Virus record (IMG/VR): IMGVR_UViG_3300033062_002302
Reading direction: 5' to 3' (one strand)
Source of the DNA: a virus
Taxonomy: Duplodnaviria > Caudoviricetes
DNA: 64,000 bases
In this document: positions 23,250 through 63,894 of the stretch, in pieces
Layout: every line of letters starts with the position of its first letter
Position numbering within the stretch: the stretch's first letter is position 1
Notes under the pieces: generated by a model
Told to the model about the DNA's origin: nothing
Database searches by the model: none
Seen by the model: the letters and a program-made list of their open reading frames with translations, nothing else
Position numbers and translations under genes: made by a program

Positions 23250-23441
23250 ATGACCCCTCAATTATTCATTGATATTAATGGGGCTAGATTGTATTATCTA
23301 AAAGGTCACTATCATAGATTAGATGGACCCGCTATTGAATATTCTAATGGAGAAAAATATTGGTATTTTCATGGTAAACGTATAGATTGTGATTCTCAAG
23401 AAGAATTCGAAGAGACTATTAAGCTAACTATGTTTTGGTGA
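23250..23441 (+). CDS. HRxDGPA-repeat protein (1 repeat), tail KLTMFW
   Basis: HRLDGPAIE..KYWYFHG..SQEEF..MFW*. Confidence 0.8.
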   Translation: MTPQLFIDINGARLYYLKGHYHRLDGPAIEYSNGEKYWYFHGKRIDCDSQEEFEETIKLTMFW

Positions 23442-23446
23442 TTGTT

Positions 23447-23653
23447 ATGAGAAATGGATTGGTTGAAGGTTTTATTGGGACTTTTGAGGTTAAAAGATAT
23501 TATTTAAATGATCTTCTCCATAGAGAAGATGGTCCAGCTATAGAATTTACTGGTGGATCTAAATATTGGTATTTTCATGGAAAATATATAGACTGTAATT
23601 CTCAAGAAGAGTTTCTAGCTATAATTAATCCTAAACTCGCTATGTTTTGGTAG
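23447..23653 (+). CDS. HRxDGPA-repeat protein (1 repeat), tail NPKLAMFW
   Basis: Start at ATG 23447, 5 nt after upstream stop. Confidence 0.8.
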   Translation: MRNGLVEGFIGTFEVKRYYLNDLLHREDGPAIEFTGGSKYWYFHGKYIDCNSQEEFLAIINPKLAMFW

Positions 23654-23658
23654 TTGAT

Positions 23659-23919
23659 ATGAAAAATGGTTTTATTATTACTAAACGTGGAACTAAATGT
23701 CATTATTTAAATGATAAATTCCATAGAGATGATGGTCCGGCTGTTGAATATGCTGATGGGTCTAAATGTTGGTGCCAAAATGGTAAATATCATCGAGAAG
23801 ATGGTCCTGCCATTGAATGGAATGATGGAGTTAAAGAGTGGTATTTTCATGGCAAAGAAATAAATTGTAAATCTCAAAAAGAATTTGAAGAATATATTAA
23901 GTTAGCTATGTTTTGGTAA
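23659..23919 (+). CDS. HRxDGPA-repeat protein (2 repeats), tail KLAMFW
   Basis: Start at ATG 23659, 5 nt after upstream stop. Confidence 0.8.
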   Translation: MKNGFIITKRGTKCHYLNDKFHRDDGPAVEYADGSKCWCQNGKYHREDGPAIEWNDGVKEWYFHGKEINCKSQKEFEEYIKLAMFW

Positions 23920-23924
23920 TTGAT

Positions 23925-24245
23925 ATGAAGAATAAGCCGCAGATAGATTCATTTGGCACTAAAAGATATTATTTAAATAGCCGCCTTCATAGATTAGACG
24001 GTCCTGCCATCATATATAAGGATGGATATAAAGGGTGGTATCAACATGGTTTACTTCACAGACTAGATGGTCCTGCCGTTGAATCCAGCAATGGAGATAA
24101 ACTTTGGTATCAAAATAGTGAACTTCATCGACTTGACGGTCCCGCCATTGAACGTGTTAATGGAGATAAACATTATTATTTTCATAATAAATATATAAAG
24201 TGTTCTTCTCAAGAAGAATTTAAGATATCAATTATTTTTGGTTAA
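23925..24245 (+). CDS. HRxDGPA-repeat protein (3 repeats), variant tail SIIFG
   Basis: Start at ATG 23925; three HRLDGPA units. Confidence 0.8.
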   Translation: MKNKPQIDSFGTKRYYLNSRLHRLDGPAIIYKDGYKGWYQHGLLHRLDGPAVESSNGDKLWYQNSELHRLDGPAIERVNGDKHYYFHNKYIKCSSQEEFKISIIFG

Positions 24246-24302
24246 AATTATTTATTAAAATAAATCTTGGGGTATATCTCTCCTCAAAGGAGATCTCATA
24301 TA

Positions 24303-24653
24303 ATGAGCGACCGAGCAGATAATGTTGACGAAATGTACGAAGAAGTTCCCGAAGAGAATCAAAAAATATTTGAATTACCTCATTCAAACAATGAATCAAA
24401 ACGCCTTTTAGAATCTAAAGAGACTTCAAATCATTTGTCTTTAAAAGACAAATATCTTTTAGATGTTGCTAAGCTAAATCGCAGGATCTCTTTGCTTCAA
24501 GCTGAAAAAGCTTTAGCTGAGCACACTGCCGCCGAAGCAAATTTCAAATACTCTATACTTCAGCTTTATATGAAATATGGCTTGACGGAAGCTGACGCTA
24601 TTGATGATGACGGTCAAATTCACAAAAATGTTAAACCAGCAAATAAAGAATAA
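24303..24653 (+). CDS. Hypothetical coiled-coil protein
   Basis: ATG 24303 with SD AGGAG at 24288. Confidence 0.6.
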   Translation: MSDRADNVDEMYEEVPEENQKIFELPHSNNESKRLLESKETSNHLSLKDKYLLDVAKLNRRISLLQAEKALAEHTAAEANFKYSILQLYMKYGLTEADAIDDDGQIHKNVKPANKE

Positions 24654-24668
24654 AGAATAAAGGAAATA

Positions 24669-26341: not shown

Positions 26342-26505
26342 AAATAGAATTTGAAGATAAATCATTTGTTCAAATAACTAAAAATTCAATGGGTAATATT
26401 GTTATTATGATTCAGGCTAAGGATCATGAAAATTCATTGAAGAAAATTAGCAATGCGGTTGAATTGAGTCCTGAAGAATTTAAAAGATTAATTGGCGATT
26501 TATGA
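26338..26505 (+). CDS. Small hypothetical protein (55 aa, not in ORF track)
   Basis: Read by hand: MKIEFEDKSFVQITK..FKRLIGDL*; ATGA overlaps at both ends. Confidence 0.6.
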   Translation: MKIEFEDKSFVQITKNSMGNIVIMIQAKDHENSLKKISNAVELSPEEFKRLIGDL

Positions 26506-26828
26506 CTCTAGAAGAAGAATCTTATTCTAAAGAAGATTCGTTAAGAGCTTTGATTATTGAAGCTGGAGTTCCTTTATTCGAATGTTATTATAAAAATAAT
26601 TATAAGGGATTTTATCGGGGAATTTATTTTGATTCAGATTCTGTAAAGATAGTTACTATTTCTCCCAAACGCACAGGAGATAATCCAGATTATTTTATTA
26701 ATATTCCTAAGACATTTGATTCTAAATACAATAGAGAGGTAGAGTATTTATTCTGTTTTTATAATTCTAATATAGATTTAGTTACAAAAGAATTAAAATC
26801 TTTTATTTTATTGAAAGAATTCATATGA
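26502..26828 (+). CDS. Hypothetical protein with LxxFx C-terminal tail (LKEFI)
   Basis: Aromatic-rich; ends KELKSFILLKEFI*. Confidence 0.65.
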   Translation: MTLEEESYSKEDSLRALIIEAGVPLFECYYKNNYKGFYRGIYFDSDSVKIVTISPKRTGDNPDYFINIPKTFDSKYNREVEYLFCFYNSNIDLVTKELKSFILLKEFI

Positions 26829-27088
26829 TGGATAATCTTTATAGTTCAGTAGAGGTCTTAATAGCCGGTCATAATTATGAGGTATTAAATACTTTTTTCG
26901 ATCTAGCTTCCCAAGATTTGGGTGTCAGGTATTATTGTGATGAATTCCCGCGTAGATATATTTATTTATACGATATAAAATTTTCTTTTAGAACTCTTGA
27001 TGACTATTTTTTTACTATTGATCGTTTTCATTTCGAATATATCTCAAAAGAACTTCCTAAATTTTTGACATTACAGGCTTTTTTATGA
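26825..27088 (+). CDS. Hypothetical protein with LxxFx C-terminal tail (LQAFL)
   Basis: Ends KELPKFLTLQAFL*; ATGA overlap. Confidence 0.65.
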   Translation: MMDNLYSSVEVLIAGHNYEVLNTFFDLASQDLGVRYYCDEFPRRYIYLYDIKFSFRTLDDYFFTIDRFHFEYISKELPKFLTLQAFL

Positions 27089-27318
27089 CTATCTTCGATT
27101 TAATCGAGGAAAGTTCTTTGACATTATTTGCCATTTATGTCTTAAATAAATATAATTATAAATTTAAACATGTGACGGATGTTAAGATTTCTAAGCATAA
27201 TTATTATTTTTTTATAGAAATAGATTACGACAATGATTATGTATGGTTTTGTTTTTCTGAATTAAATGGTCTTAAAGAAGATTTTGAAAGCTTTCTTAAG
27301 CTAAGACAATTTCTATAG
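27085..27318 (+). CDS. Hypothetical protein with LxxFx C-terminal tail (LRQFL)
   Basis: Ends KEDFESFLKLRQFL*; ATGA overlap. Confidence 0.65.
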   Translation: MTIFDLIEESSLTLFAIYVLNKYNYKFKHVTDVKISKHNYYFFIEIDYDNDYVWFCFSELNGLKEDFESFLKLRQFL

Positions 27319-27371
27319 TATTTCATAAAATGCTGATCTATCAGTAGTTTGGCATTGCTATAGGAAAACCT

Positions 27372-28475: not shown

Positions 28476-28498
28476 TATGCATATTTTTTTATAAAGAT

Positions 28499-36703: not shown

Positions 36704-37036
36704 TTATGAAAAAATTGAGTATTGGTCTAGTAATTTATTGAGTTCTATTTCTGAAAGAGCAAGGTCTTCATCATTTAATGATATTTTAAAAATAAAATCT
36801 CTGTCATGTGGAGCTGATACACCAAAAACTTTTTCTTCTTTAAGATAAAGAAGACTATATTTGTCAGTATCAACTTCGATTCTTTGAGTCGAATTTTTGA
36901 CTTCAAACCATCTTATAACTCCATTATTAAATTTAATCATTGGACATGATGTACACCATCCCCATCCTAAATATGGGGATGGACAATATAATTTACGATT
37001 ACATCGTGGGCAATTTTCAATAGGAAATGTAATCAT
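36704..37036 (-). CDS. CPRC zinc-ribbon / IFS-tail family protein
   Basis: CPRC..CTSCP..ends QYSIFS*. Confidence 0.8.
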   Translation of the reverse strand: MITFPIENCPRCNRKLYCPSPYLGWGWCTSCPMIKFNNGVIRWFEVKNSTQRIEVDTDKYSLLYLKEEKVFGVSAPHDRDFIFKISLNDEDLALSEIELNKLLDQYSIFS

Positions 37037-37392
37037 GAAAATATAATATGTGATGCAATTAATTTGTCAAGCTCTAATTCTGATAGAGCCAAATCACTAT
37101 CATTTAGTGATATTTTAGAAATGATTGAAACTTGCTCTCCATCTGGAGGCTCATTTAATGATATTTCAAATAATCCATCTCTTTTATCATAATAAATATT
37201 GTAATTATGAGTGTTAATTTCTATGATTTGTAGAGGATTAATTATCTCAATAAAATTGAGATTGAAGCTTTTAAAATTGATTTTTGGACATTCAAGACAG
37301 CCTATCCACTTTGATGATGCTGATTTTCCACCTCCAACCTTTTTTAATCTTGAATTGCATCTTGGACATATGGTGATAGGAAATGTGATCAT
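37033..37392 (-). CDS. CPRC zinc-ribbon / IFS-tail family protein
   Basis: CPRC..CLECP..ends SHIIFS*. Confidence 0.8.
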   Translation of the reverse strand: MITFPITICPRCNSRLKKVGGGKSASSKWIGCLECPKINFKSFNLNFIEIINPLQIIEINTHNYNIYYDKRDGLFEISLNEPPDGEQVSIISKISLNDSDLALSELELDKLIASHIIFS

Positions 37393-38311: not shown

Positions 38312-38317
38312 ATCATG

Positions 38318-38584: not shown

Positions 38585-38589
38585 AATAG

Positions 38590-40069: not shown

Positions 40070-40074
40070 AAAGA

Positions 40075-40335: not shown

Positions 40336-40340
40336 ATCAA

Positions 40341-40739: not shown

Positions 40740-40740
40740 A

Positions 40741-47752: not shown

Positions 47753-47757
47753 ATTAA

Positions 47758-50171: not shown

Positions 50172-50990
50172 ATGAGAAATGTATCTATTTTTTCAATTAT
50201 CGTCGCTGGCGCCGTTCTTTCATGCCGCAAATCCGAATCCAATGATATTAAACCCATTGAAAATATTGTTCTTAGTTCTAAACCAGAAGAGGCTAAAGAA
50301 CCTCCTCCGATTTGCGGAAACAATATGATTGAAGTTAAAGGCAATTATTGCCCTAATGTTGAACAAAATTGTTTAGAGTGGGACGAAAAGACAATCAATG
50401 TTAATGGCAAGGTTCGATGCCTACGTTTTGCCCCAAGTAAATGTTTATCTAAGACTCGTAAGTTTTTGAATTTTTGTATAGATACTTATGAGTTTCCAAA
50501 TCAAAAAGGAGCTATTCCGATTGTTATGATATCCTGGAATGACATGAAAAAGCTATGTGAAGACCAAGGAAAACGTATCTGCAAAGATTTTGAATGGGAA
50601 TTTGCATGTGAAGGCGAAGAGATGTTGCCATATCCATATGGTTTAAATAGAGATGCTACGAAATGCAATATTGATAAACCATGGATTCCTTTTGATAGTC
50701 AAAAGCTTTTCAACCCAAAGACTAGGGGAGAAGAAGTAGAACGATTATCTCAAAGAGTTCCTTCTGGCTCCATGGATTGCAAATCTCCATTTGGAGTCTA
50801 CGATATGACTGGGAACGTTGATGAATTTGTTGTTAATTCCAGCGGCTCTCCTTATAAGAGCGGATTAAAAGGTGGTCATTGGGCGTGGGGCGCTAGAAAT
50901 AGAGCTAGACCAGTTACATTGGCTCATGATGAGAATTTTGCTTTTTATGCTGAAGGCGGAAGATGTTGCCAGGATATTAATCATAAATGA
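50172..50990 (+). CDS. FGE-sulfatase (SUMF1/CLec-fold) domain lipoprotein
   Basis: Signal plus LSC lipobox; FCIDTYE, EWEFAC, YPYG, SPFGVYDMTGNVDE, GRCC. Confidence 0.82.
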   Translation: MRNVSIFSIIVAGAVLSCRKSESNDIKPIENIVLSSKPEEAKEPPPICGNNMIEVKGNYCPNVEQNCLEWDEKTINVNGKVRCLRFAPSKCLSKTRKFLNFCIDTYEFPNQKGAIPIVMISWNDMKKLCEDQGKRICKDFEWEFACEGEEMLPYPYGLNRDATKCNIDKPWIPFDSQKLFNPKTRGEEVERLSQRVPSGSMDCKSPFGVYDMTGNVDEFVVNSSGSPYKSGLKGGHWAWGARNRARPVTLAHDENFAFYAEGGRCCQDINHK

Positions 50991-51613
50991 CTTGGATAAA
51001 AGATTTTATTTCTAAAAAATGTCCTTTATGTGATTCTAGTTTAAATTTTAATTTCGTTTCCACTTCTAGAAAAGAAATTAAAACAATTGACGATCAATTA
51101 TTAATTAATTTCAAAACAGGATATTTTCCCGATCAAGGGAATTACCTTCAATTAAGCATTAATTATGAAAATCTTGATTTTGAAATCAATTCCTTTATTA
51201 AAGATAAAAAGGAATTGAAAATATCAATAGATAACGATCTTGATTATTGTAAAAGAATCTTTTTATATCCAGAAAATGGGGGAGTCTTTAATGGAAGATT
51301 TAAGCCTTGGAAATTATTTTCAGGTTCTTGCAAATGCCTTAGCTACTATATAGAGTCTAGTACACTTTCTTTTTGTTCAAAAACAGGAAAAGTAGAATCA
51401 AGTTTACTCCCTACTCTTTCAGAGGTATTTAGTCTTTCAACCTCAAAAACTAATTATAAATTAATTAATAATTACAAAAACAATAATAGCGAATTGATTT
51501 ATCAAGGAGCTGATCTTTTAGATTGTTTAAAAGTCGAAAATCTTCCTATTTTAACTTTCGAAGACAAAAACGATCTAATTAAAAGATTAGAGACGATTAC
51601 AGTTTTTTCATAG
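50987..51613 (+). CDS. Long variant of CxxC / IFS-tail family
   Basis: CPLC, CKC, ends DLIKRLETITVFS*. Confidence 0.7.
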   Translation: MTWIKDFISKKCPLCDSSLNFNFVSTSRKEIKTIDDQLLINFKTGYFPDQGNYLQLSINYENLDFEINSFIKDKKELKISIDNDLDYCKRIFLYPENGGVFNGRFKPWKLFSGSCKCLSYYIESSTLSFCSKTGKVESSLLPTLSEVFSLSTSKTNYKLINNYKNNNSELIYQGADLLDCLKVENLPILTFEDKNDLIKRLETITVFS

Positions 51614-52090
51614 AAATTGTGGGTATTTATAAACAAATTGAAGGTGAGATATAATCTGTCGAATTGTTTCAATTGGCAATTTTTGATAGTTATTAACAGG
51701 CTTAGCCCAATCCTCATTTTTAAATCGAGAATCAGTTAACATATTAATTTTACTTATTGTTTTGTATTTATTTCCTTTAAAAGTAAAGACCTTATCTTCT
51801 AAGATGGAAATGTTAAGGCTAACAGCATTTTTAACAGCTTCATAATTTCTAATTTTAATGTAGAAATTTCCAACCGTAATATTGCCGGTCATATGTAGCT
51901 TTTCGAGGATTTCGTCGCTTGTCGCATCTGTTAAGTTAAGCTGGTCTTGATATAAAACTTCTGAACCGGGAACCTTCTCTTCTTCTTTTGTCCCATATTG
52001 TTGATCGACAAGAGTCTTAATTAAAGACAAGTATTCCTCTTCTTTTAGAGAGGGATTAAAAGAAATAGGTTTTGAATTCTTTTGAGACAT
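51608..52090 (-). CDS. Hypothetical protein
   Basis: 160 aa ORF; ends YPQFL*. Confidence 0.6.
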   Translation of the reverse strand: MSQKNSKPISFNPSLKEEEYLSLIKTLVDQQYGTKEEEKVPGSEVLYQDQLNLTDATSDEILEKLHMTGNITVGNFYIKIRNYEAVKNAVSLNISILEDKVFTFKGNKYKTISKINMLTDSRFKNEDWAKPVNNYQKLPIETIRQIISHLQFVYKYPQFL

Positions 52091-52130: not shown

Positions 52131-52769
52131 ATGAAGTCTATTAAGCATCTTTCTAATAAAATCAATTGTTTCTTCAAGCTTGCCGAAAAAGAAGAGCTTC
52201 CTGAAAATTCAGATGATCTTGAAACGGTCCTGAAAAACCTTTCAGAGTTAGAGACCTTTACGGCTCGGGTTGATTATGCTGAAAAGAATCTCAAACATCT
52301 TTCTTCTGGTTCTTCTCGGGTCGTTTATCTTGTAGATGATGGCAAGCAGGCTATGAAGTTGGCTAAAAATGATCGGGGCATTTCCCAAAATAAGATTGAA
52401 TCTAAGATAAAATCTAAATTCATTAATGAAACAACCAAGTTTGATAAAGATGGCGTTTGGAAGCTTTCGCCTTTCTTAGACAAGATTACAGAAAAGGAAT
52501 TTGAAAAATTAATTGGAGTTAATTTTAAAGATTTTGGGAAAGCTTTGGATTATGGACTTCAAGATGTTAGCGATGATTCTGCCGCTAAACCCAAAGACTT
52601 CAATAAAATTAAAGAGCTTCCGATTTATAAAGAATTGGTTGCCGTTGGTAAAAAACATAAATTAATGCCTGGAGATATGTCTCGCATTAGTTCTTGGTGC
52701 ATGAAGGATGATGTTCCTATGCTAGTTGATGCCGGGCTAACTAAAGAAATATATGATGAATTCTATTGA
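52131..52769 (+). CDS. Protein kinase-like fold protein
   Basis: GSSRVVY loop, MKLA, NKIE, GDMSRISSW, LVDAG. Confidence 0.6.
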   Translation: MKSIKHLSNKINCFFKLAEKEELPENSDDLETVLKNLSELETFTARVDYAEKNLKHLSSGSSRVVYLVDDGKQAMKLAKNDRGISQNKIESKIKSKFINETTKFDKDGVWKLSPFLDKITEKEFEKLIGVNFKDFGKALDYGLQDVSDDSAAKPKDFNKIKELPIYKELVAVGKKHKLMPGDMSRISSWCMKDDVPMLVDAGLTKEIYDEFY

Positions 52770-53326
52770 AACTTAAAGAAACACATTGCCCAATATGTTC
52801 TAAAGAGTTAGAAATCAAATGTCATTTGATTTTTGATTATTTTTATTGCAATTCTTTTGAATGCTCTTCAGAAAAAGAAGGAAATCTTTTAAAGAGAGTT
52901 AATTATAAATTAGTGACAGACTATATGACTTCTGATGTTGAAATTGATTTAATGTCAGGAGCTTTTAAGTTTAATGTTATCGAAAATAACTTTCCTGATT
53001 CCAAACTTAGCGATTCTACTGCAATAATGGCACTGAATAATTATTCAGTAAATCTTTTTCAAGAATGTGATGAGTGCGAGTATATAATTAATTATAATTA
53101 CTTTAAATTTGATTCATTACTATTTAAAATTAATAAAATATCAGTTTGGAGCGAACAAATTAATCTTAAGAATTATAAGATATATAATGATTTTAAAGCG
53201 GGAAAGACTCATTTATATTTTAATGATAACGACACTGATAGTAACGTCAAATCATTTGATGAAATTTTTGATTTTAAAAAAAATAATCCAGAGCGCTGGA
53301 TTAAGGAGCGTTTAATTTTTGGCTAA
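52766..53326 (+). CDS. Long variant of CxxC / IFS-tail family
   Basis: THCPIC..CNSFEC..CDEC, ends IKERLIFG*. Confidence 0.7.
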   Translation: MKLKETHCPICSKELEIKCHLIFDYFYCNSFECSSEKEGNLLKRVNYKLVTDYMTSDVEIDLMSGAFKFNVIENNFPDSKLSDSTAIMALNNYSVNLFQECDECEYIINYNYFKFDSLLFKINKISVWSEQINLKNYKIYNDFKAGKTHLYFNDNDTDSNVKSFDEIFDFKKNNPERWIKERLIFG

Positions 53327-53875: not shown

Positions 53876-54409
53876 TTGAATCAATATACAATTAAAGATT
53901 ATATCAATTACGTTTCTTCATCTTGCAAATTTTGCGATGAAAAAATTAATATATATTTGTTATATGATGCTAAGCATATTAAGGCAGAAAAAATTGTTGA
54001 TGACAAATTAGTATTTGTTATTAAAAAATATAAGTTAAAACCTATAACTTATATTAAGTTTGACCTTAAGACAAATATGTGGGTTAGTTCATTTAAAATG
54101 TTAGAAAATAAACCAATGTCATTAAGCCTTGCTTGTAAAGAAGGCTGCTCTGTATTTTCAACCTCATATTTATCTTTTGATGATAAAAGGGCTCTTCCTT
54201 TAACTTCTGCTTTTGAAAGCATGCGAGTCATAATAGATGGGTCTGTATTTATTGTAAATTCTTATAATCTAGATAATGATCCAAAAACATATTTTAGACA
54301 AAATGATTTCAACTCACATTATAGACAGATAGACTTATTACTAATGTCTTCTTGGAAAGATAAACAAACTCTGATTGATATTATCAAAACAAACTTAATA
54401 TTTACTTAA
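53876..54409 (+). CDS. Long variant of CxxC / IFS-tail family
   Basis: CKFC..CKEGC, ends IIKTNLIFT*. Confidence 0.7.
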   Translation: MNQYTIKDYINYVSSSCKFCDEKINIYLLYDAKHIKAEKIVDDKLVFVIKKYKLKPITYIKFDLKTNMWVSSFKMLENKPMSLSLACKEGCSVFSTSYLSFDDKRALPLTSAFESMRVIIDGSVFIVNSYNLDNDPKTYFRQNDFNSHYRQIDLLLMSSWKDKQTLIDIIKTNLIFT

Positions 54410-55086: not shown

Positions 55087-55473
55087 ATGCTTCAGACGTC
55101 TTATAAAGATGTTTTTGACCTTATCCCAAAGAATTGTTTAGAGTGTGAATCAGGACTACAGAGTCAGCTTCTTGATCGAAACCAAATATATTATAGTTGC
55201 GACAACAGATCTTGCCAGTATGATTCAACTTATTATTTCACAATAAATAAAAATATTGGATATCTTCCAGATTATTTCAATTTAGAGTTAGACGAAGAAT
55301 GTCAAAAAGATTATAATTCAAGAACTTTATTTACATATGTATTTTATAATAAAAATTTAATATTAAAAAAGTTAAACGATCAATTGTTTTATGAAAAAAT
55401 AGATTTAAATGTTAATTGGAAAAGCAAGCAAGACATTCTTGCGGCTATTAAGGAAATTTTAATATTTTCATGA
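55087..55473 (+). CDS. CxxC / IFS-tail family protein
   Basis: CLEC..CDNRSC..ends EILIFS*. Confidence 0.78.
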   Translation: MLQTSYKDVFDLIPKNCLECESGLQSQLLDRNQIYYSCDNRSCQYDSTYYFTINKNIGYLPDYFNLELDEECQKDYNSRTLFTYVFYNKNLILKKLNDQLFYEKIDLNVNWKSKQDILAAIKEILIFS

Positions 55474-55805
55474 AGTTATGCCCTAGATGTAATTCTGCTC
55501 TTGAAAAAGCTTCCAAAGGACACTCATTGGCTTGTTACAATTGTCCTAAAGTTATAGCCAAAGATGGATTCCAATATCATTGGATGTATTATATGATTGG
55601 ATCTAATTCAATACATTTAGTATTAGAAAAATTTAATTTTTATTTAATAATCAATCCTGACTCGCCTAATCTAGCTGAGATTACAGAACATCCAGGAATA
55701 GCTTGTTCTTTAAGGTATACTACCATTAGTATACCATTAGATTTGCTTTCGAAGACACAAGAGCAGATTGATGCTTACATAAATCAAGTTTTGATATTTC
55801 AATGA
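55470..55805 (+). CDS. CPRC / IFS-tail family protein
   Basis: CPRC..CYNCP..QVLIFQ*. Confidence 0.8.
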   Translation: MKLCPRCNSALEKASKGHSLACYNCPKVIAKDGFQYHWMYYMIGSNSIHLVLEKFNFYLIINPDSPNLAEITEHPGIACSLRYTTISIPLDLLSKTQEQIDAYINQVLIFQ

Positions 55806-56116
55806 ATTTAAAATCTATAACACATTGTCCAAGATGTAATATCACATTAACCATCTATAAAAATTCTGGCGGTAGAGGCTGCCAAAATTGTCCATTAATA
55901 CCATACGAAGATAACGTATCTTGGATTTATATTAATGAAGACAACTCTTATTTTGAGATCGGTCATACAGCTTATCCTGATTATTGGTTTAGCTCTAACA
56001 CTAACGATCTTGTTGTAATTAATGACGTAATATCATACAATGTAAACGAATCAATGATTTATATGTCTGATGATGAGATAGCCAATATTATTAAAACCAT
56101 ATTAGTATTTAAATAA
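55802..56116 (+). CDS. CPRC / IFS-tail family protein
   Basis: CPRC..CQNCP..TILVFK*. Confidence 0.8.
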   Translation: MNLKSITHCPRCNITLTIYKNSGGRGCQNCPLIPYEDNVSWIYINEDNSYFEIGHTAYPDYWFSSNTNDLVVINDVISYNVNESMIYMSDDEIANIIKTILVFK

Positions 56117-56117
56117 C

Positions 56118-56441
56118 ATGAATATAACTCATTGTCCAAGATGTAATTCTGAACTAAAGAACTATAGCGACCATTATCTTATATGCTTAAATTGTCCTTT
56201 AACTTCTAGTCGTTTTTGGTGTGAATGGAGCAGAAGAAATTATTGGTATAGCCTTTATACTAAAAAATATTGGATTATACACTGTTTAGACCTTAATGAT
56301 AATTATAGATATATTATTTACGATAATAATAATGCTGGAATTGGTTCCTTCCCGGAAATTCCAATATCTAGTACGCCACTTTACCTTCTTTCAGATAATG
56401 AAATTGACACTTACATTGATTCATATTTAATATTTTCATGA
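56118..56441 (+). CDS. CPRC / IFS-tail family protein
   Basis: CPRC..CLNCP..SYLIFS*. Confidence 0.8.
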   Translation: MNITHCPRCNSELKNYSDHYLICLNCPLTSSRFWCEWSRRNYWYSLYTKKYWIIHCLDLNDNYRYIIYDNNNAGIGSFPEIPISSTPLYLLSDNEIDTYIDSYLIFS

Positions 56442-56779
56442 CCATTCCTTTTATTACACATTGTCCTCGATGTCAAAACGAACTTACACGATATAATTCT
56501 TATTGGTTACAATGCAATTGTCGCATAGAAATAAACAAAGCAGGACATGCTTGTAGTTGGCTTTACGTGACAGATCCAAATACCAGCACAGAAGGGTTGC
56601 AAGAAAAATGGCTAGATATTCATATTTATTACAATAATTATTGGATATTGTGGGCAGATCAACGTCTGAGAAATTCAGAGACTTACAAAGATTATAATGT
56701 TTATGTTCCAAATAATATTTATCTTTTTTCAGATCAAGAGCTTGATACATTCATTAAATCAAACTTAATATTTTCATGA
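56438..56779 (+). CDS. CPRC / IFS-tail family protein
   Basis: CPRC..CNC..SNLIFS*. Confidence 0.8.
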   Translation: MTIPFITHCPRCQNELTRYNSYWLQCNCRIEINKAGHACSWLYVTDPNTSTEGLQEKWLDIHIYYNNYWILWADQRLRNSETYKDYNVYVPNNIYLFSDQELDTFIKSNLIFS

Positions 56780-57087
56780 ATTTATCTTTTCCAATCACGC
56801 ATTGTCCTAGATGCCAAAGTGATTTGCAGCCATATCCAGACTCTATGTTAAAAAACAGTGATTGGTTGCAGTGCATTGGCTGCGTTGATGATTTTGATAT
56901 TTATATTAATAATGAGACTAAAGATTTGCAAATTCGTTACAACAATTATTGGTTTCTTCTAGAAGAACAAGAAATTGAGAACGTTTCAACAGGAAGCTGT
57001 TACAAAACAAATTTTGATCTCAGCATTTGTTTCTATTCTAGCCGTCAATTAAATGACTTGATTAAAGCGGTATTAATTTTTTCATAA
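56776..57087 (+). CDS. CPRC / IFS-tail family protein
   Basis: CPRC..CIGC..AVLIFS*. Confidence 0.8.
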   Translation: MNLSFPITHCPRCQSDLQPYPDSMLKNSDWLQCIGCVDDFDIYINNETKDLQIRYNNYWFLLEEQEIENVSTGSCYKTNFDLSICFYSSRQLNDLIKAVLIFS

Positions 57088-57100
57088 CCATAAGGCGACC

Positions 57101-57445
57101 ATGAACTGTCATCAATGTAAAACAATATTAACCTTAAATGAAAATGCTTCGCATCTTTCTCGTGTCAAAGTCTATACTTGCTCAAATTGTCCATTGATTG
57201 AATCAGTCTTCGCAGAAGACGAATGCAACGAAATGACTAATAAAACGTGGTATTTGTCAGAAAATAGGTGGAGCTTAATTGCTAGAAATTACTTGGTAAA
57301 TAGGAAATTTCCAACTGAACGAGACTCTTATATTATGTTGCCTGACCACTCTAAAGTGTATTACGAAGCCGCTCCGTCTCTTCCTGCAAAAAAAAAAGAA
57401 GAAGAGATAGAGCAATATATTAAAGAGGTTTTCATATTTCAATGA
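57101..57445 (+). CDS. CxxC / IFS-tail family protein
   Basis: CHQC..CSNCP..EVFIFQ*; SD TAAGG. Confidence 0.8.
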   Translation: MNCHQCKTILTLNENASHLSRVKVYTCSNCPLIESVFAEDECNEMTNKTWYLSENRWSLIARNYLVNRKFPTERDSYIMLPDHSKVYYEAAPSLPAKKKEEEIEQYIKEVFIFQ

Positions 57446-57747
57446 ATTGTCCTAGATGCTCTACGGCTTTCTCAAAAAGGGAGCGACATGTATATGATGT
57501 CTGTTTAAACTGCCCTAAAATTTCACATGATTCTTTTTTAGATTATTGGATCAATTGGTATGGCAAAGATCACTACAATGTAATTTCTTCAAAAACCACA
57601 GGCATTATCGTTTATTTTAAAGATGAATCAATGTTACTGATACCTCATTCTAATATTAGAATTAATCTAACTATAGAGTCTGATTTTTATAAAAGGTCTG
57701 ATGAAGAAATCGGCAATTTCATTAAGGAGATTTTAATTTTTAATTAA
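57442..57747 (+). CDS. CPRC / IFS-tail family protein
   Basis: CPRC..CLNCP..EILIFN*. Confidence 0.8.
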   Translation: MNCPRCSTAFSKRERHVYDVCLNCPKISHDSFLDYWINWYGKDHYNVISSKTTGIIVYFKDESMLLIPHSNIRINLTIESDFYKRSDEEIGNFIKEILIFN

Positions 57748-57760
57748 AACCAGTCCGATC

Positions 57761-57791
57761 TTGACAAGGCGGAATTACGTCTTATTATAAT
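57761..57791 (+). promoter_or_regulatory. Sigma70-consensus promoter inside the array
   Basis: TTGACA(57761) with TATTAT at 16-nt or TATAAT at 19-nt spacing, in the largest gap of the array. Confidence 0.7.
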
Positions 57792-57804
57792 TGGATAGCA
57801 TTAC

Positions 57805-58134
57805 ATGACGACTATATTTCCGATCACGCATTGTCCTAGATGTCAAAATTTATTGACAAGACCTTTATTGTTAAATGACATTACTGATTGGAGCACCTGT
57901 AATTTTTGCCCAGACATCTTTGTTCCTAGATATAAGAAAAATTTTTACATCAACAATGCTACCAACGATTTTAGTATTAACACTTCAAAATTTTATATTC
58001 ATAAAAAAATAGGCTATGTTTACGATGATTTACTTAAAAAGGTTTATTACTTTAATATTCCTGATAGTTTAATACTATCAAAAACAAATGAAGAAATAGA
58101 CGAAGTTATTCTTGGATTAATTATATTTTCATGA
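57805..58134 (+). CDS. CPRC / IFS-tail family protein
   Basis: CPRC..CNFCP..GLIIFS*. Confidence 0.8.
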   Translation: MTTIFPITHCPRCQNLLTRPLLLNDITDWSTCNFCPDIFVPRYKKNFYINNATNDFSINTSKFYIHKKIGYVYDDLLKKVYYFNIPDSLILSKTNEEIDEVILGLIIFS

Positions 58135-58475
58135 AAATAACACATTGCCCTAGATGTAAGAACGCGCTCTTGTTTGATGAAATATGGACGGATTGGTTTT
58201 GCCAATCATGTCCTTTAATTGATTATAGGCGTTGGTGCGTTTGGGATGATGATGGAAAGTCATATGATATGGCTACTGATTTATTTACAATAAACCATTC
58301 CGTCGATTTATTCTCTAAAAAAGAATTAACGAAAATTTATCGTAGCTCTCTAAATGATTATGCTGAAGAAGCATTGCTTTTTACATTAACAAACTCTCAT
58401 GATATGAAAGATTTATATTTGCAATCCAATGATTATATTAATGAGCTAATTAAAAAATTAATTATATTTTCATGA
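58131..58475 (+). CDS. CPRC / IFS-tail family protein
   Basis: CPRC..CQSCP..KLIIFS*. Confidence 0.8.
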   Translation: MKITHCPRCKNALLFDEIWTDWFCQSCPLIDYRRWCVWDDDGKSYDMATDLFTINHSVDLFSKKELTKIYRSSLNDYAEEALLFTLTNSHDMKDLYLQSNDYINELIKKLIIFS

Positions 58476-58819
58476 ACAATTGTTATCCAACATATTGTCC
58501 TCGCTGTCATGTTTCATTTGTTAGCACTAAATATTTTAGTGAGATGTATTATTCGGGTTTTATTTTGACCTGTAAAACTTGTATGCCTCCGGATAAAAAA
58601 TATAATGGTTATTCTTGGATTGAATTCTATTCACATTCGTTCGTTCTTAGAACTAATATATTTTATATCAAATGTTATGACAATCGAATTGTAATTCGAT
58701 ACCGATATTGTTCGAGTGTTTTATTGACTTATAACATTGATTCTTGCCCGCTTTTTCTTTTAAATTTCTCCAATGACAAACTAAATGAATTCGTCAATCA
58801 ACTCCTTATCTTCTCTTGA
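58472..58819 (+). CDS. CPRC / IFS-tail family protein
   Basis: CPRC..CKTC..QLLIFS*. Confidence 0.8.
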   Translation: MNNCYPTYCPRCHVSFVSTKYFSEMYYSGFILTCKTCMPPDKKYNGYSWIEFYSHSFVLRTNIFYIKCYDNRIVIRYRYCSSVLLTYNIDSCPLFLLNFSNDKLNEFVNQLLIFS

Positions 58820-59129
58820 TTATCCAAATCATTGTCCGAGATGTCAAACCAATTGGAACAATTCCTCATTTGGAACTTGTTTCCTTAATTGTCCGAGAAT
58901 ATCTGGTTATTGTTGGCTTTATTTATACATCACTCATATTTCAATTAGAACCAATTATTATCATATTATAATTCTTAATGAATTTTCAACCAAATCTGAT
59001 GTCTACTCATTAAATATGAATGATGACAGATTAATTGCTCAAATTACAATTGAAGACCCAATAAAGTTTATGTATCTCTCTAATGACGAAATTAATGCCG
59101 CTATCCTGCCAATGGTTATTTTCTCATGA
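58785..59129 (+). CDS. CPRC / IFS-tail family protein (start uncertain)
   Basis: CPRC..CFLNCP..PMVIFS*; only in-frame ATG lies inside the upstream gene. Confidence 0.7.
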   Translation: MNSSINSLSSLDYPNHCPRCQTNWNNSSFGTCFLNCPRISGYCWLYLYITHISIRTNYYHIIILNEFSTKSDVYSLNMNDDRLIAQITIEDPIKFMYLSNDEINAAILPMVIFS

Positions 59130-59458
59130 TTACAGCTTGCCCTCGGTGCCAAGCTCCTTTGGCTCTGCTGCCATTTTCTCATTTTTTATATTGTCCTGCC
59201 TGCCCTAATATTCAAATAAATTTCAAAGAAAGATTTTGGTGCTATTGGAGTCCTTCAGGCGATTTTTATGAAGTGATAACAAATAAGTATGCAATCACTA
59301 AAGATAATATAGATCTCCCCGATGAATATGAAGTCTATTTTGAAACTAAATTGGGGACTAAAAAATTGAAATTAAATTTATCAAACGCTCCAATTCTTTA
59401 CCTATTGTCATCATCTCAAATAGATGACTTAATAGATTCACACATTATTTTCTCATGA
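59126..59458 (+). CDS. CPRC / IFS-tail family protein
   Basis: CPRC..CPACP..SHIIFS*. Confidence 0.8.
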   Translation: MITACPRCQAPLALLPFSHFLYCPACPNIQINFKERFWCYWSPSGDFYEVITNKYAITKDNIDLPDEYEVYFETKLGTKKLKLNLSNAPILYLLSSSQIDDLIDSHIIFS

Positions 59459-59778
59459 CAAATTGTCCACGCTGTCAAACAATATTGCATATTAACATTT
59501 ATCACGCTAGGTGCATTAAATGCCCTACGGTTCGCGGAAATTATTGGTGTGAATGGAAAGTTAATAATAAACAAGATATTATTCCTGAGCGTTATTTTCT
59601 AGAAACCAAACTTTTTGCAATATATTTTTGTTGGAATGAAGGAGAAGTTCCAACCTACAATATTTTTGATTCTAAATATCGCATATTATTAAGCGGTGTA
59701 GAGCTAGCTCCAGATCTTTATCTTCTTAAGGATGAACAAATTAATGATATAGTTAATTCTCTTATTATTTTTTCATGA
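59455..59778 (+). CDS. CPRC / IFS-tail family protein
   Basis: CPRC..CIKCP..SLIIFS*. Confidence 0.8.
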   Translation: MTNCPRCQTILHINIYHARCIKCPTVRGNYWCEWKVNNKQDIIPERYFLETKLFAIYFCWNEGEVPTYNIFDSKYRILLSGVELAPDLYLLKDEQINDIVNSLIIFS

Positions 59779-60101
59779 CAAAATGCCCTCGATGCCATCA
59801 TAATTTAAAATTTAATTCATGCTTTGCTGAATGTCAAAATTGCCCTAAAATATGCGAACGGTCTTGGTGCGTTTGGAATGTAGAATCTAATTTAATTAAA
59901 CCAGAACAATATGAACTGCGAACAAACTTATACACGATCCTCTTCTCATCTTACCGATTTCACGCCAATAATAAATATTCATATGATATTTACGATTTAA
60001 ATTTTAAGTCAATGTTTGAAAAAGAACTGCCGTCAGGTCTTTATCTTCTCTCAAATGACCAAATTAACGATATGATTAAAACTCTTATTATTTTCTCATG
60101 A
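59775..60101 (+). CDS. CPRC / IFS-tail family protein
   Basis: CPRC..CQNCP..TLIIFS*. Confidence 0.8.
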   Translation: MTKCPRCHHNLKFNSCFAECQNCPKICERSWCVWNVESNLIKPEQYELRTNLYTILFSSYRFHANNKYSYDIYDLNFKSMFEKELPSGLYLLSNDQINDMIKTLIIFS

Positions 60102-60433
60102 TAAAAAATTGCCCTAGATGCGATCAAATATTAACACTTAATCAATCCGGACATATTGAATGTAATAATTGCCCTAAAACCTTTGATGGGTATTCATGGT
60201 GCGAATGGGTGCCAGACCAAAATAATGCTACAACAGAACGTTATTATTTAGATACCGATCTTTTCTCTATCTATTATCATTCACATAATGAAATAACAAA
60301 CGTTCCAAATTATAGCATTCATGCTTCTGACTATAAACTTCTTTTATACAAAATCAATCTTCCTACAGATCTTTATCTTCTTCCAGAATCTGAAATAAAC
60401 AAATTTATAAATTCATTGATAATATTTTCATAA
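60098..60433 (+). CDS. CPRC / IFS-tail family protein
   Basis: CPRC..CNNCP..SLIIFS*. Confidence 0.8.
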   Translation: MIKNCPRCDQILTLNQSGHIECNNCPKTFDGYSWCEWVPDQNNATTERYYLDTDLFSIYYHSHNEITNVPNYSIHASDYKLLLYKINLPTDLYLLPESEINKFINSLIIFS

Positions 60434-60753
60434 TGACTAATCCTATTACTCACTGCCCCAGATGTAAAAATAAGCTCGTTCCTTCTTGGGATGATAAATA
60501 TGCTTGGCTAGAATGCAATAGTTGTCCTAGGATTGAAAAATCAATAGCTGGTAACAATGAAAGTTGGTTGTCCATTGATCATAAACAGGAAGAATTTCAA
60601 ATACTTTGTTATCAATATCCTGATTTTTATTTTCAATGTAATCCCCCTTTAATAAAAGACGCAAATATTTATTATCATTCCGATAAGCCACTCTATTTTC
60701 TTTCAGACCAAGAATTAGCTGAGTTAATAAAAACAACTCTTATATTTTCATAA
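60433..60753 (+). CDS. CPRC / IFS-tail family protein
   Basis: CPRC..CNSCP..TTLIFS*. Confidence 0.8.
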   Translation: MTNPITHCPRCKNKLVPSWDDKYAWLECNSCPRIEKSIAGNNESWLSIDHKQEEFQILCYQYPDFYFQCNPPLIKDANIYYHSDKPLYFLSDQELAELIKTTLIFS

Positions 60754-61088
60754 TGCCATTCCCTATCACTCACTGTCCTAGATGCCAATCAGCTCTTATT
60801 AACCCTTTCCCTGCGTTTCCTGGCTCGTTTATTTGTGATTACTGCCCTAAAATTTCAAATAAAAATACCAGCTACGAAACTAACAGTGGAGAAGATTCTT
60901 GGTTATGGGTTGACAATAATAATAAGAATTATGAAATTACCTGTAATGAAGGGTGGCTCGCTTACCAAGCACAAGCCTATAATACTTGGGATGATAAAGA
61001 AATAAAGGTTCAAATCCCTGAAGATTTTTATCTTTCTTCAGAAGAGGAAATCAGCTTTTTTATTAAACAACTTTTGATATTTTTATGA
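60753..61088 (+). CDS. CPRC / IFS-tail family protein
   Basis: CPRC..CDYCP..QLLIFL*. Confidence 0.8.
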   Translation: MPFPITHCPRCQSALINPFPAFPGSFICDYCPKISNKNTSYETNSGEDSWLWVDNNNKNYEITCNEGWLAYQAQAYNTWDDKEIKVQIPEDFYLSSEEEISFFIKQLLIFL

Positions 61089-61447
61089 ATAACACATTCC
61101 CAACTCATTGCCCTAGATGTCAAAATGAAATTAAAGACATTAGAGAGGCAACTAAATCATATTTCTGCTTATCTTGCGCTAAAGCAAATTCTTATATTTG
61201 GTCTGAATGGAGTTCTATTCCGAATAATAATTATTGTAAATTAATAACAAATAAATTTATTATTATAAGATTATATAATGACCTTGATTACTACTGTAAT
61301 ATTTATTACAATAATAATCGTAATGGGTTCCCTTCCTGGGAAGAAGATCATATTCAAGGCATGATCATTCATAATATTTTTGATTTATTTTTTATGACGG
61401 AAGATGAAATTAATGCCTTTGTCGCTCAATTATTAATTTTTTCCTAA
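61085..61447 (+). CDS. CPRC / IFS-tail family protein
   Basis: CPRC..CLSC..QLLIFS*. Confidence 0.8.
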   Translation: MNNTFPTHCPRCQNEIKDIREATKSYFCLSCAKANSYIWSEWSSIPNNNYCKLITNKFIIIRLYNDLDYYCNIYYNNNRNGFPSWEEDHIQGMIIHNIFDLFFMTEDEINAFVAQLLIFS

Positions 61448-61785
61448 TGACAATCCATTTTTCCGACTTCCCCAAGCAATGTCCCCGTTGCCAAACGGAT
61501 TTGACGCCTTATATGTTAAATAGCCTTTGTTGCCCCGCCTGCCCCAAAATTAAGATTCGTTTCGGCGATATCCCATGGTGTTTCTGGAGAACAAATCAAG
61601 ATTTATATTTTATAATAACAGGAACATATAAAGTATATGTAAGTTCAAATACTCTTGAAGTCAGAACACGTTCTGACAATAAATCATTGTTTTCCAATTA
61701 TCAATTTTGTCCTGATATCGCTCTTTACCTTTTGTCTGATATTGAAATCGACAATCTTATCAATCAATATTTAATATTTTCATGA
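61447..61785 (+). CDS. CPRC / IFS-tail family protein
   Basis: CPRC..CPACP..QYLIFS*. Confidence 0.8.
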   Translation: MTIHFSDFPKQCPRCQTDLTPYMLNSLCCPACPKIKIRFGDIPWCFWRTNQDLYFIITGTYKVYVSSNTLEVRTRSDNKSLFSNYQFCPDIALYLLSDIEIDNLINQYLIFS

Positions 61786-62120
61786 TTGAATATCCCGATA
61801 AATGCCCTAGATGCTCTAAACCTTGGCTTCTCCAATCTTTAAGTCTTGGAAATGTTTATAGCTATGAACGATGCTATCAATGTCCAAGTGTATATAATGA
61901 TCATTCTTGGATTTATGGTTATCAAGACCAAATATCAGTAAGAACACACAATTATCATATTATTATTTTTGAAAGTGGAAATTGTCATGTTTCTCTAATA
62001 TCGGGTCATAATAATTACAATAAAATCATATTGTCTTTTAAATATGACCCTCTTGAGTTTATTTGTTTGACTGAATCTAATATGGATTTACTCATTAATG
62101 AATTGTTAATATTTTCATGA
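61782..62120 (+). CDS. CPRC / IFS-tail family protein
   Basis: CPRC..CYQCP..ELLIFS*. Confidence 0.8.
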   Translation: MIEYPDKCPRCSKPWLLQSLSLGNVYSYERCYQCPSVYNDHSWIYGYQDQISVRTHNYHIIIFESGNCHVSLISGHNNYNKIILSFKYDPLEFICLTESNMDLLINELLIFS

Positions 62121-62145
62121 ACTTATATTTAAGTCATTATCCTAA

Positions 62146-62508
62146 ATGTTAGAAAAAATTCCAAAATATTGTCCTCGATGTCAAGCAAAATTTGTAGCCT
62201 TGTCTAACACGCTTCAATGTAATGAGTGTCCGCTTATTCATGGCGATGTATGGTGTCGCTTTAGAATAGATGGTCCTGACTATTTTTCTTGGGTTATTAA
62301 AACCGAAAAATATTTAATTTATCAATATCCACAATATCCATTTAGCATTTTCAATTCTTTAATAATTTATACCTACATTCCTAAAAATAATCATTATTCT
62401 CATTATAGTAAAGATCTTAAATTAAACGAGTTTACGCCAGCTCTTTATCTCTTGATGTCGAATGAAGATATTAATCTTTTTATAGATTCTCTCTTGATTT
62501 TTTCATGA
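62146..62508 (+). CDS. CPRC / IFS-tail family protein
   Basis: CPRC..CNECP..SLLIFS*. Confidence 0.8.
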   Translation: MLEKIPKYCPRCQAKFVALSNTLQCNECPLIHGDVWCRFRIDGPDYFSWVIKTEKYLIYQYPQYPFSIFNSLIIYTYIPKNNHYSHYSKDLKLNEFTPALYLLMSNEDINLFIDSLLIFS

Positions 62509-62849
62509 ACCCAACTTCCTATTATCCGCATCCAAGCGCTTGCCCTCGTTGCCAATCTTCTTGGGTGCCAGAATATCCCGATTTCCCATCTTCTTCTGCA
62601 TTGATTTGTCTAAATTGTCCAAAGGCAGTTGATGGCAATAATTGGCTTTATATCTATCGAGAGCGAATCTCTTTGCGAACAAATTTATGGAGAATCAAAT
62701 ATTATAAAGATAATTGGTTTCATATTACTAAAGCTACAAGTCCTTGGCAGTTAATCTTTTCTTTAAAGTTAGAAACTAATATTGATTTCATCTCTCTTTC
62801 TAATAATTAAATCAATGAAATAATTGAATCTTTTCTTATTTTCTCATAA
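62505..62849 (+). pseudogene. CPRC / IFS-tail family member with in-frame nonsense codon before the tail
   Basis: TAA at 62808-62810; frame continues INEIIESFLIFS* to 62849. Confidence 0.8.
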
Positions 62850-62855
62850 TTTCAT

Positions 62856-63176
62856 ATGCTTTCCAATTATCCGCCAAACTGCCCACGATGCAACCAGCCA
62901 TGGTTTTTGTATGAAGGCTTCGACTGCTTCTGCTGCAATCATTGTCCCAAGATTAAAAATGAGTCTTACTATGTTTATCTTTTTAACTCTGGGGCATCCA
63001 TAATGACAAATCTTTATCGTGTAGAAACATACTTTAAGAGTAATACTTCATTAATTTATAGGACTTCTAATAACGAATTAATCGCCAATAAGCTAACCTT
63101 AGATCCATTAACCATACTCAACTTATCCAATGACGAAATTAATGCTTTTGTCGAGTCTCTTTTAATCTTCTCTTAA
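62856..63176 (+). CDS. CPRC / IFS-tail family protein
   Basis: CPRC..CNHCP..SLLIFS*. Confidence 0.8.
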   Translation: MLSNYPPNCPRCNQPWFLYEGFDCFCCNHCPKIKNESYYVYLFNSGASIMTNLYRVETYFKSNTSLIYRTSNNELIANKLTLDPLTILNLSNDEINAFVESLLIFS

Positions 63177-63182
63177 TTCAAA

Positions 63183-63560
63183 ATGAATAATTGTTTTTTA
63201 TCATTTCCCGATCAATGCCCGAGATGTAATTCTCGATGGGTAAATACAGCTAAAGACGGTTATAGTTTAACCTGTTCAATCTGCCCATATGTTAATGTAA
63301 ATGGACATTTATTTCTTTGGGTCCAATTAACAAAATTGAGGATGTCCTTAAGAACCAACATCTTCACAATTACTACATCAAACCAATATATTCCTACAAC
63401 AAAACGTTATTTAGATTCAAGAGATTCGGTTGTTGTCTATCATCGAGACCATCTTTTACCACGTTCAATCATTTCTCCTGTCGATCCCCTTATTTTCCTA
63501 AATGCCTCTTCCAACGATGAATTAAATGACTTGGTCAAATCCTTCCTCATCTTCTCATAA
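63183..63560 (+). CDS. CPRC / IFS-tail family protein
   Basis: CPRC..CSICP..SFLIFS*. Confidence 0.8.
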   Translation: MNNCFLSFPDQCPRCNSRWVNTAKDGYSLTCSICPYVNVNGHLFLWVQLTKLRMSLRTNIFTITTSNQYIPTTKRYLDSRDSVVVYHRDHLLPRSIISPVDPLIFLNASSNDELNDLVKSFLIFS

Positions 63561-63894
63561 TTTAATTCCAACTTCATGTCCAAGATGTAATAGTCCATGG
63601 ACAAATTATAATGCCAATATAGAATCAACCAATAGAGTTTTACAATGTTCGCTTTGCCCGAAAATAAGTCAAGGCGGGGTTTTTAACTTGCCATGGGCAA
63701 CTCTTACTACAAATTATATCACTATTAGAACGGAGATTTATAATATCTTCTTTGATTGGGAAGATCAAAGAAGTGATTTATATAAAGAAAGCTTTCCTGT
63801 TCTTCTTAATCAAAACATTAATATTATTAAGTTATTGCATCTTTCCAACGATCAAATAAATGTTGAAATCAATACCTTAATTATCTTTTCATAA
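63526..63894 (+). CDS. CPRC / IFS-tail family protein (start uncertain)
   Basis: CPRC..CSLCP..TLIIFS*; only in-frame ATG lies inside the upstream gene. Confidence 0.7.
   Translation: MTWSNPSSSSHNLIPTSCPRCNSPWTNYNANIESTNRVLQCSLCPKISQGGVFNLPWATLTTNYITIRTEIYNIFFDWEDQRSDLYKESFPVLLNQNINIIKLLHLSNDQINVEINTLIIFS

Follow-up and report, generated by a model that had tools for sequence, protein, structure and literature searches.

The docking unit of proteasome activators is the HbYX motif (hydrophobic-Tyr-X-COOH), in which an aromatic residue second from the end acts together with the free carboxylate and with a last residue of any kind. The hyperplastic internal protein (IP) locus of phage T4 encodes diverse, small and fast-evolving internal proteins, which carry a cleaved N-terminal capsid-targeting sequence and are loaded into the head for injection. 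Poxvirus ankyrin-repeat (ANK) proteins possess a C-terminal PRANC/F-box-like domain of about 40-50 residues that binds Skp1 and hands targets to a host degradation hub. Also in T4, the hydrophobic-acidic C-termini of gp43, gp55 and gp33 are interchangeable and all dock on gp45 (PMC2988020). Here we analyzed a 64,000-nucleotide stretch of virus DNA (IMG/VR record IMGVR_UViG_3300033062_002302; the whole stretch is called the window), in which a zinc-ribbon family (CxxC), an HRxDGPA-repeat family (HR) and three further small genes end in a short C-terminal tail with Phe as the penultimate residue (position -2, the final residue being -1). Judged from the sequences of this phage and its relatives, roughly a fifth of the genes in this clade end in one portable C-terminal tail.

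Among described systems, the tails would work most like the gp45-binding C-terminal tails of T4. In both, a short element sits at the extreme C-terminus of unrelated phage proteins, and the tails of the source genome (G000) are also hydrophobic and acidic. However, the carriers number 60-100 here as opposed to three, and a 12-residue helix precedes the tail end here. The tail shares with HbYX the same position lock of a penultimate aromatic residue, but the residue is Phe and not Tyr, position -3 is small in 65% of clusters, the carriers are monomer-sized small proteins rather than ring ATPases, and no HslV/proteasome gene (PF00227) was detected in G000, which is 56% complete. T4 internal proteins are likewise diverse, small and fast-evolving proteins with one short terminal address; there, an N-terminal peptide is removed by the prohead protease, whereas here the element is C-terminal, the N-termini differ and the arrays lie among nucleotide-metabolism genes. 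The ANK-PRANC proteins of poxviruses resemble the tail carriers in being expanded viral families with a variable body and a constant C-terminal element, which is the logic put forward in the original prediction; unlike the folded PRANC domain, the tail is a 12-residue motif in a bacterial virus and has no Pfam match. Set against the bacterial beta-clamp-binding motif QL[SD]LF, the tail agrees at Leu -5 and Phe -2, carries A, M or I as the fourth residue and has K or any residue instead of Q as the first. The tail system is a member of none of the following: T4 clamp tails, HbYX, T4 capsid-targeting peptides and ANK-PRANC. A lineage-specific zinc-ribbon expansion of about 35 copies in Bacillus phage G (PMC7824862) is a parallel in copy number only; no C-terminal tail is reported there. 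A full-text search found no description of such a tail in the literature, and the earlier claim that no described system matches agrees with what was found in Pfam, PHROG and the literature searched.

The evidence for one tail comes from relatives, which were found through their ribonucleotide reductase and taken as whole records; with G000 included, the tally of Phe at -2 covered 12 phage genomes. Open reading frames (ORFs) were taken from a simple longest-ORF caller, by which start positions are uncertain and C-termini are unaffected by start choice. G000 had Phe at -2 in 74 of 303 ORFs (background Phe frequency, 4.6%). Counts for the other genomes were:

G001, 394 kb, 92% complete: Phe at -2 in 102 of 608 ORFs
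G006, a 90 kb fragment: Phe at -2 in 21 of 103 ORFs
G004, a 66 kb fragment: Phe at -2 in 4 of 73 ORFs, 4 of 4 with the strict full motif
G002, G003, G005, G008, G011, G013, G014 and G016: Phe at -2 in 1-5% of ORFs (background)

Among small ORFs Phe was enriched at -2 only, and controls were flat. The small ORFs of G000 had 72 Phe at -2 versus 4-10 at each of -1 and -3 to -8, and those of G001 had 98 versus 12-34 at other positions. With the last 20 residues removed, the proteins of G000 and G001 formed 612 BLAST clusters, 107 of which had Phe at -2 (binomial, 2e-31); 25 of these 107 possessed the strict motif without any CxxC. In iterative hidden Markov model (HMM) searches, the CxxC family took in only 44 of the 170 small ORFs with a tail.

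The cluster-weighted consensus of the tail reads hyd(-12)-hyd(-11)-x-[RK](-9)-hyd(-8)-x-K(-6)-[LI](-5)-x-[A/small](-3)-F-[L,S,T,I,W]-COOH, where hyd is a hydrophobic residue. In the underlying profile, R/K accounted for 65% at -9, hydrophobic residues for 78% at -8, K/R for 52% at -6, L/I/M/V for 87% at -5 and small residues for 65% at -3. The residue at -2 was Phe, occasionally Leu, Tyr or Trp, and charge at -1 was nearly excluded, with 2% basic residues versus 27% in other small ORFs. An HR tail from outside these genomes, FERLIKLKAFW, matched the clade profile residue for residue, as did the tails of the Cys-knuckle arrays in G001 (...YLKLKAFL) and of the three small window genes (...FLKLRQFL). 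On this evidence, the LLIFS and KLAMFW endings of G000 are two local flavours of one clade-wide tail.

The tail was also separable from the bodies that carry it. Nine HR genes of G008 (e.g. 21126-21614) end in ...QFNDNINEALK, and 37 of the best 120 HR homologues failed a loose tail pattern, most of the 37 having other C-terminal modules. Conversely, KLKAF[LW] was found on G006 and G001 proteins possessing neither Cys knuckles nor HR repeats. The C-terminus of HR proteins was replaceable within the group as well: two HR genes of G000 end in AELIFS and one in IIFG, and an HR gene beside a CxxC array in the related contig L001 ends in IIIFS; ahead of the clade comparison, these endings were the sole links between the families. 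The proposal that a constant tail sits on dissimilar, variable small bodies is thereby borne out at clade level by G001, G006, G004 and L001, together with HR bodies that bear other tails.

Three observations accompany these results. The HR genes of G008 share another conserved tail, ...LQRNKQFNDNINEALK, possibly a second kind of address carried by HR bodies. At G001:C1:5456-6713, a family of 65-76-aa proteins ends in ...DPKLKAFT, like the ...NPKLAMFW of four G000 HR genes, and this family suggests that a 'proline' variant of the tail is portable too. In the tail-poor but collinear G002, two Cys-knuckle genes at the contig end (G002:C1:197795-198544) end in ...KLSMLWG and ...KKLMTIY, and an array may begin past the assembled sequence.

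The Phe lock at -2, the lack of charge at -1 and the tail's outliving of body divergence and swaps are features of a short C-terminal recognition motif whose reader also contacts the free carboxylate. We infer, at roughly even odds in our own estimate, that a single common partner recognises the tail as a portable tag at the C-terminus. Such a tag would comprise an amphipathic helix of about 12 residues, usually a small residue, Phe, exactly one uncharged residue and the free carboxylate, and the partner would read it together with the free C-terminus. Many diversified small bodies would thus be delivered to the same place. Candidate partners are a proteolytic or unfoldase machine, the capsid interior (with packaging and injection) and a host ring such as the beta clamp, and the variable bodies would probably be binders of different targets, for which host defence proteins were suggested originally. 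A fuller scheme, which we think improbable though worth stating, holds that 60-100 diversified binders per genome grip host or rival-phage proteins and hand them via the Phe-X hook to one machine. That machine would be a phage or host protease/unfoldase, or the procapsid, making the system a bacterial-virus counterpart, far greater in scale, of poxvirus ANK-PRANC or of T4 internal proteins.

An independent ORF call on the window reproduced the gene counts of the original prediction, namely 37 CxxC genes, 12 HR genes and three small genes at 26.5-27.3 kb, all with Phe at -2. The CxxC set comprises 33 genes of about 110 aa (one cut by a TAA codon) and four long variants starting at 50987, 52766, 53876 and 55087; the whole G000 contig contains 38 CxxC and 26 HR genes. 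The terminal helix begins with Ser -16 in the CxxC family and with Ser -15 in the HR family, in agreement with the S-x-x-E cap placed earlier at 15-17 residues from the end. The tail genes of the window, together with one candidate (51608..52090), are listed below with their C-terminal residues.

23250..24245, plus strand: four tandem HR (MORN-like) genes, three ending ...KLxMFW and the last (23913-24245) ending ...SIIFG
26502..27318, plus strand: three small coupled genes of 108, 87 and 77 aa, ending LLKEFI, TLQAFL and KLRQFL
36704..37757, minus strand: three tandem CxxC genes, ending SIFS, IIFS and LIFS
38051..38928, minus strand: three tandem HR genes, ending AVFW, AMFW and ...NPKLAMFW
39809..40778, minus strand: three tandem HR genes, ending KLAMFW, which flank thymidylate synthase (38930-39775)
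43875..45533, minus strand: five tandem CxxC genes, ending LFS, LFS, LFL, IFQ and IFS
47492..48267, minus strand: two HR genes of 90 and 169 aa with 2 and 6 HR motifs, ending IMFW and AMFW
50987..51613, plus strand: long CxxC variant of 208 aa with an insert behind the first Cys knuckle, ending TVFS
51608..52090, minus strand: 160-aa gene of unrelated sequence, ending KYPQFL (NKNPAFI in the G001 orthologue)
52766..53326, plus strand: long CxxC variant of 186 aa, ending LIFG
53876..54409, plus strand: long CxxC variant of 177 aa, ending LIFT
55087..63894, plus strand: 27 co-directional CxxC genes in an unbroken array, most with ATGA or TAATG stop/start overlaps
62505..62846, plus strand: interrupted CxxC gene with an in-frame TAA at 62808-62810 and the intact tail INEIIESFLIFS in frame beyond it

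Members of the 55087-63894 array have an N-terminal CPRC...CxxCP zinc ribbon and about eight beta strands, followed by the helix L-S-x-x-E-I-N-x-x-I-x-x-L-L-I-F-S-stop. The interrupted gene (62505-62810) reads ...SLSNN-stop-INEIIESFLIFS-stop, with a single TAA within the profile match, which is the CxxC gene described earlier as carrying a nonsense codon ahead of an intact tail. The shared IIFG and LIFG endings reported for one HR and one CxxC gene were found as well (23913-24245 and 52766-53326, respectively). Inspected by eye, the DNA encoding the IIFG ending seems to have arisen from the MFW ending through small insertions and deletions and not by copying of a CxxC gene, a weak indication. 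The small genes at 26502-27318 have a tail of the clade's KL[KR]xF[LW] type on bodies without Cys knuckles or HR repeats; a word-indexed search found no homologue of them beyond G000, and they had no Pfam or PHROG match. Just upstream, a 55-aa ORF (26338-26505) ends in ...LSPEEFKRLIGDL, which is like the start of an HR tail but without the Phe-X end (tail HMM, E 0.05). The 160-aa gene at 51608-52090 is possibly a further tail carrier.

Residues C12, C15, C29 and C32 were invariant in 33 CxxC paralogues and in 60 sequences including external homologues. The family has the two Cys knuckles about 10-20 residues apart of a generic zinc ribbon, and its profile gave weak matches to zinc-ribbon chains (E 0.01-0.1), the complete domain matching no PDB chain by sequence. 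In an AlphaFold model (m98803c09d0e5; predicted local distance difference test score, pLDDT, 88.7), about eight beta strands are accompanied by a helix spanning residues 98-111 with pLDDT of about 91. None of the solved structures matched this model (Foldseek E>=0.8; VIA Z<=4.2). The family is rare: 68 profile matches were obtained in 1.84 billion representatives, about 30 of them external small proteins, nearly all of which keep ...IKTxLIF[SKQR], and a tblastn search (E<=0.1) with a CxxC member against 50,697 phage records returned no match. The HR model (m04245f28b9ee) has pLDDT 92, with 92 in the C-terminal helix and 69 over the final five residues. It is a MORN-like hairpin array followed by a C-terminal helix, with MORN1 (6t4d) as the nearest Foldseek match (probability 0.99, E 0.012, template modelling (TM) score 0.44) and Z<=5.0 by VIA. 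HR proteins may be like MORN proteins in their modelled tandem beta-hairpins and are unlike them in the HRxDGPA signature and the added C-terminal helix and tail. No HR protein matched a Pfam MORN family (PF02493/PF07661) at E<=0.1. One member, from the 47492-48267 locus, matched PF20530 (DUF6745) with 30.4 bits (cut-off, 27) over profile positions 63-97 of 206, that is, the repeats only; other members fell under the cut-off. HR is widespread in metagenomes (480 matches), and among the best 120 of these most end in ...SQEEFERLIKLKAFW, 72 having Phe and 17 Leu at -2. The -2 Phe, described originally as invariant, is so in all tail genes of the window but not in HR elsewhere, as these 17 homologues and about 20 HR paralogues in L007 have Leu instead. 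CxxC, HR, the small proteins and ten longer tail carriers of G001 belong to no Pfam or PHROG family, and a search for related loci with protein P0150 as query gave nothing.

Several results weigh against a recognition tag with one reader. When an anchored position-specific scoring matrix was built from CxxC tails, typical HR tails ranked 14-35 among 236 unrelated C-termini. Tail HMMs gave no cross-detection between the window families (E>=1), and hhalign between the window tails gave a probability of 0.65%. The three tails of the window are alike only in hydrophobic-Phe-X and are not significantly similar beyond it. With each paralogue family counted once, Phe at -2 in G000 alone fell to about 10 of 239 (4.2%), indicating no enrichment; the cross-family signal emerges only once relatives are included. 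The earlier claims were affected accordingly. A genome-wide enrichment of Phe at -2 is present in the raw ORF count but not in the family count of G000; a tail shared by three families went undetected within the window and was recovered as a clade-wide motif from relatives; and the tail HMM, proposed as a check, failed to join the window families. Since the tail-rich genomes are close relatives, the clade signal is partly one phylogenetic event. In addition, a Cys knuckle opens many of the 'unrelated' clusters, which may together be a single superfamily that evolves fast, and the CxxC and HR models are both beta-hairpin meanders with the same top structural neighbours, so that common descent could explain part of the sharing. 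Finally, the helix is placed confidently in both AlphaFold models (pLDDT of about 91 and 92), and a compact domain made of a sheet and a helix (7x8c) can be superposed on residues 53-112 of the CxxC model at 2.3 A (Z 3.4); for this reason the helix may pack on its own body.

A packed helix is the core of the main alternative, which has real support and which we consider possible though less likely, namely that descent has preserved the tail as a structural cap. The C-terminal helix would cover the hydrophobic face of the beta-hairpin meander with no common partner, and the tail would be the part that changes most slowly in one or two families undergoing explosive duplication. The high helix pLDDT in both models is consistent with such a cap, as are a hydrophobic stripe at -5, -8 and -12, the top structural neighbours that both models share (Atlas neighbours of CxxC including MORN clusters, TM about 0.5), the keeping of its own tail flavour by each family in distant homologues and the lack of family-level enrichment in G000 alone. 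However, since HR bodies exist with quite different C-termini, the HR fold needs no such cap, and the KLKAF[LW] end occurs on bodies without Cys or HR repeats. Neither the Phe lock at -2 nor the charge exclusion at -1 is required by a packed helix. A helical wheel inferred from the profile puts Phe -2 about 60 degrees off the hydrophobic stripe, beside basic residues, and the final five residues of the HR model are those that fall to pLDDT 69.

The amphipathic character of the tail raises another alternative. MinD and FtsA possess C-terminal membrane-targeting amphipathic helices, and a helix of this kind might bring the small proteins to the inner membrane. The clade consensus is basic at -9, -6 and -4, and hydrophobic or aromatic residues line one of its faces and close the chain, as expected of such a helix. 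By contrast, the tails of G000 are net acidic (SQEEFEEQIKLAMFW; SNDEINAFVESLLIFS), and lipid binding leaves the exact -2 lock unexplained; we regard membrane targeting as very unlikely.

Codon usage bears on whether the peptide or the nucleotide sequence is conserved. The -2 Phe codons of CxxC genes showed a TTT:TTC ratio of 30:7, with 80:20 genome-wide; Phe codon usage equals that of the genome, indicating that selection acts on the peptide. The final Ser codon was TCA in 24 of 28 CxxC genes (genome, 24%), and the Ile codon at -3 was ATA in 17 of 32 (genome, 18%). An ATGA stop/start overlap is found at the end of 19 of 37 CxxC genes and accounts for the TCA bias, although Ser was kept as the final residue in 9 of 14 CxxC genes without any overlap. 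Selection on the peptide, as originally argued from synonymous variation, is upheld by the Phe codons, whereas gene overlap partly explains the final Ser. We give very little credence to conservation at the level of nucleotides or translation, in which the sequence would serve the following cistron of an array as leader or coupling signal and the peptide would be a by-product. Although the ATGA overlaps and the TCA and ATA biases would be expected from it, it accounts for the Ser and Ile codon bias only. Usage at the Phe codons matches that of the genome, many synonymous codons occur at Leu and Ile positions, and the tail is kept in genes without a downstream partner as well as in scattered single genes of G001 and G006.

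For a recognition tag a partner was sought among candidate families and by a phyletic screen, and the search yielded none, which is a further point against such a tag. A DnaN-type clamp gene was not detected in G000, G001 or G002, nor was a gp45-type clamp (PF09116) in G000 (56% complete), G001 or G002. A ClpP with Ser-His-Asp kept adjoins a ClpR-like paralogue (GMAMNEA; His lost) at G000:C1:210661-211862, and likewise in G001; from these residues ClpP is predicted to be active and its paralogue inactive. A 446-aa AAA ATPase (G000:C1:204007-205347) lies 5 kb from the pair. The G002 contig ends ahead of this region. ClpP genes also occur in the tail-less relatives G013, G014 and G016, so the pair does not track the tails, which again tells against a common reader and weakens ClpP/ClpR as a dedicated hub. 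A DksA-type zinc-finger protein, a DUF192 protein and bS21 are encoded near the pair.

The phyletic screen, for genes present in G000, G001 and G006 and absent from all tail-poor genomes, left four genes, only one of which has a Pfam domain. It encodes an FGE-sulfatase-like protein (window 50172-50990), whose homologues are found in G001, G004 and G006; others lie close to HR arrays in L006 (33% identity) and L200 (52%), and all tail-poor genomes examined lack the protein. Read by eye, it starts with a signal peptide and lipobox; because of these it was taken as extracytoplasmic and rejected as the reader of a cytoplasmic tail.

G000 is a single 239,327-bp virus record of a jumbo phage with 34.6% GC and a CheckV completeness of 56%, and one of its ends, reverse-complemented, makes up window positions 1-63986. 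The final 14 bases (63987-64000) are Illumina adapter, AGATCGGAAGAGCA, and the true contig end is 63986. The neighbours of the tail-gene arrays are nucleotide-metabolism and translation genes, including ribonucleotide reductase, a PIN-PhoH protein with a homing-endonuclease insert, methionine aminopeptidase, thymidylate synthase, IMP dehydrogenase with an intein, an RNase T-like exonuclease, dUTPase, DHFR and IF-1; one M23 peptidase and two matrixin-like peptidases are also near the arrays. The phage IF-1 (window 45535-45759; PF01176, 57.7 bits) was found in the syntenic contig L200 too. Three window genes (17507-20230, 20717-23230 and 40741-42927) carry apparent selfish inserts: the ribonucleotide reductase large subunit has 907 aa, of which relatives match some 560 codons, LAGLIDADG/Hom_end matches lie in the PIN-PhoH protein and IMP dehydrogenase has Hint/intein matches. 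The two matrixin-like zinc metallopeptidases lie within the array region (53348-53875 and 54402-55037), and the second has, as judged by eye, a lipoprotein-type signal peptide at its N-terminus. In L200, a Peptidase_M10 gene resembling them is close to an HR gene.

If the tail is only a structural cap, these genomes hold two unusually large paralogue expansions, one of them with a fold unmatched among solved structures. If it is an address tag, it would organise a fifth of the proteome in a group of very large phages, and the sequence rule K-L-x-A-F-x-stop would find the accessory or effector proteins of these phages. The function of more than 150 ORFan proteins would then be testable through one partner, and the tail would provide a small portable peptide for sending cargo to its reader.

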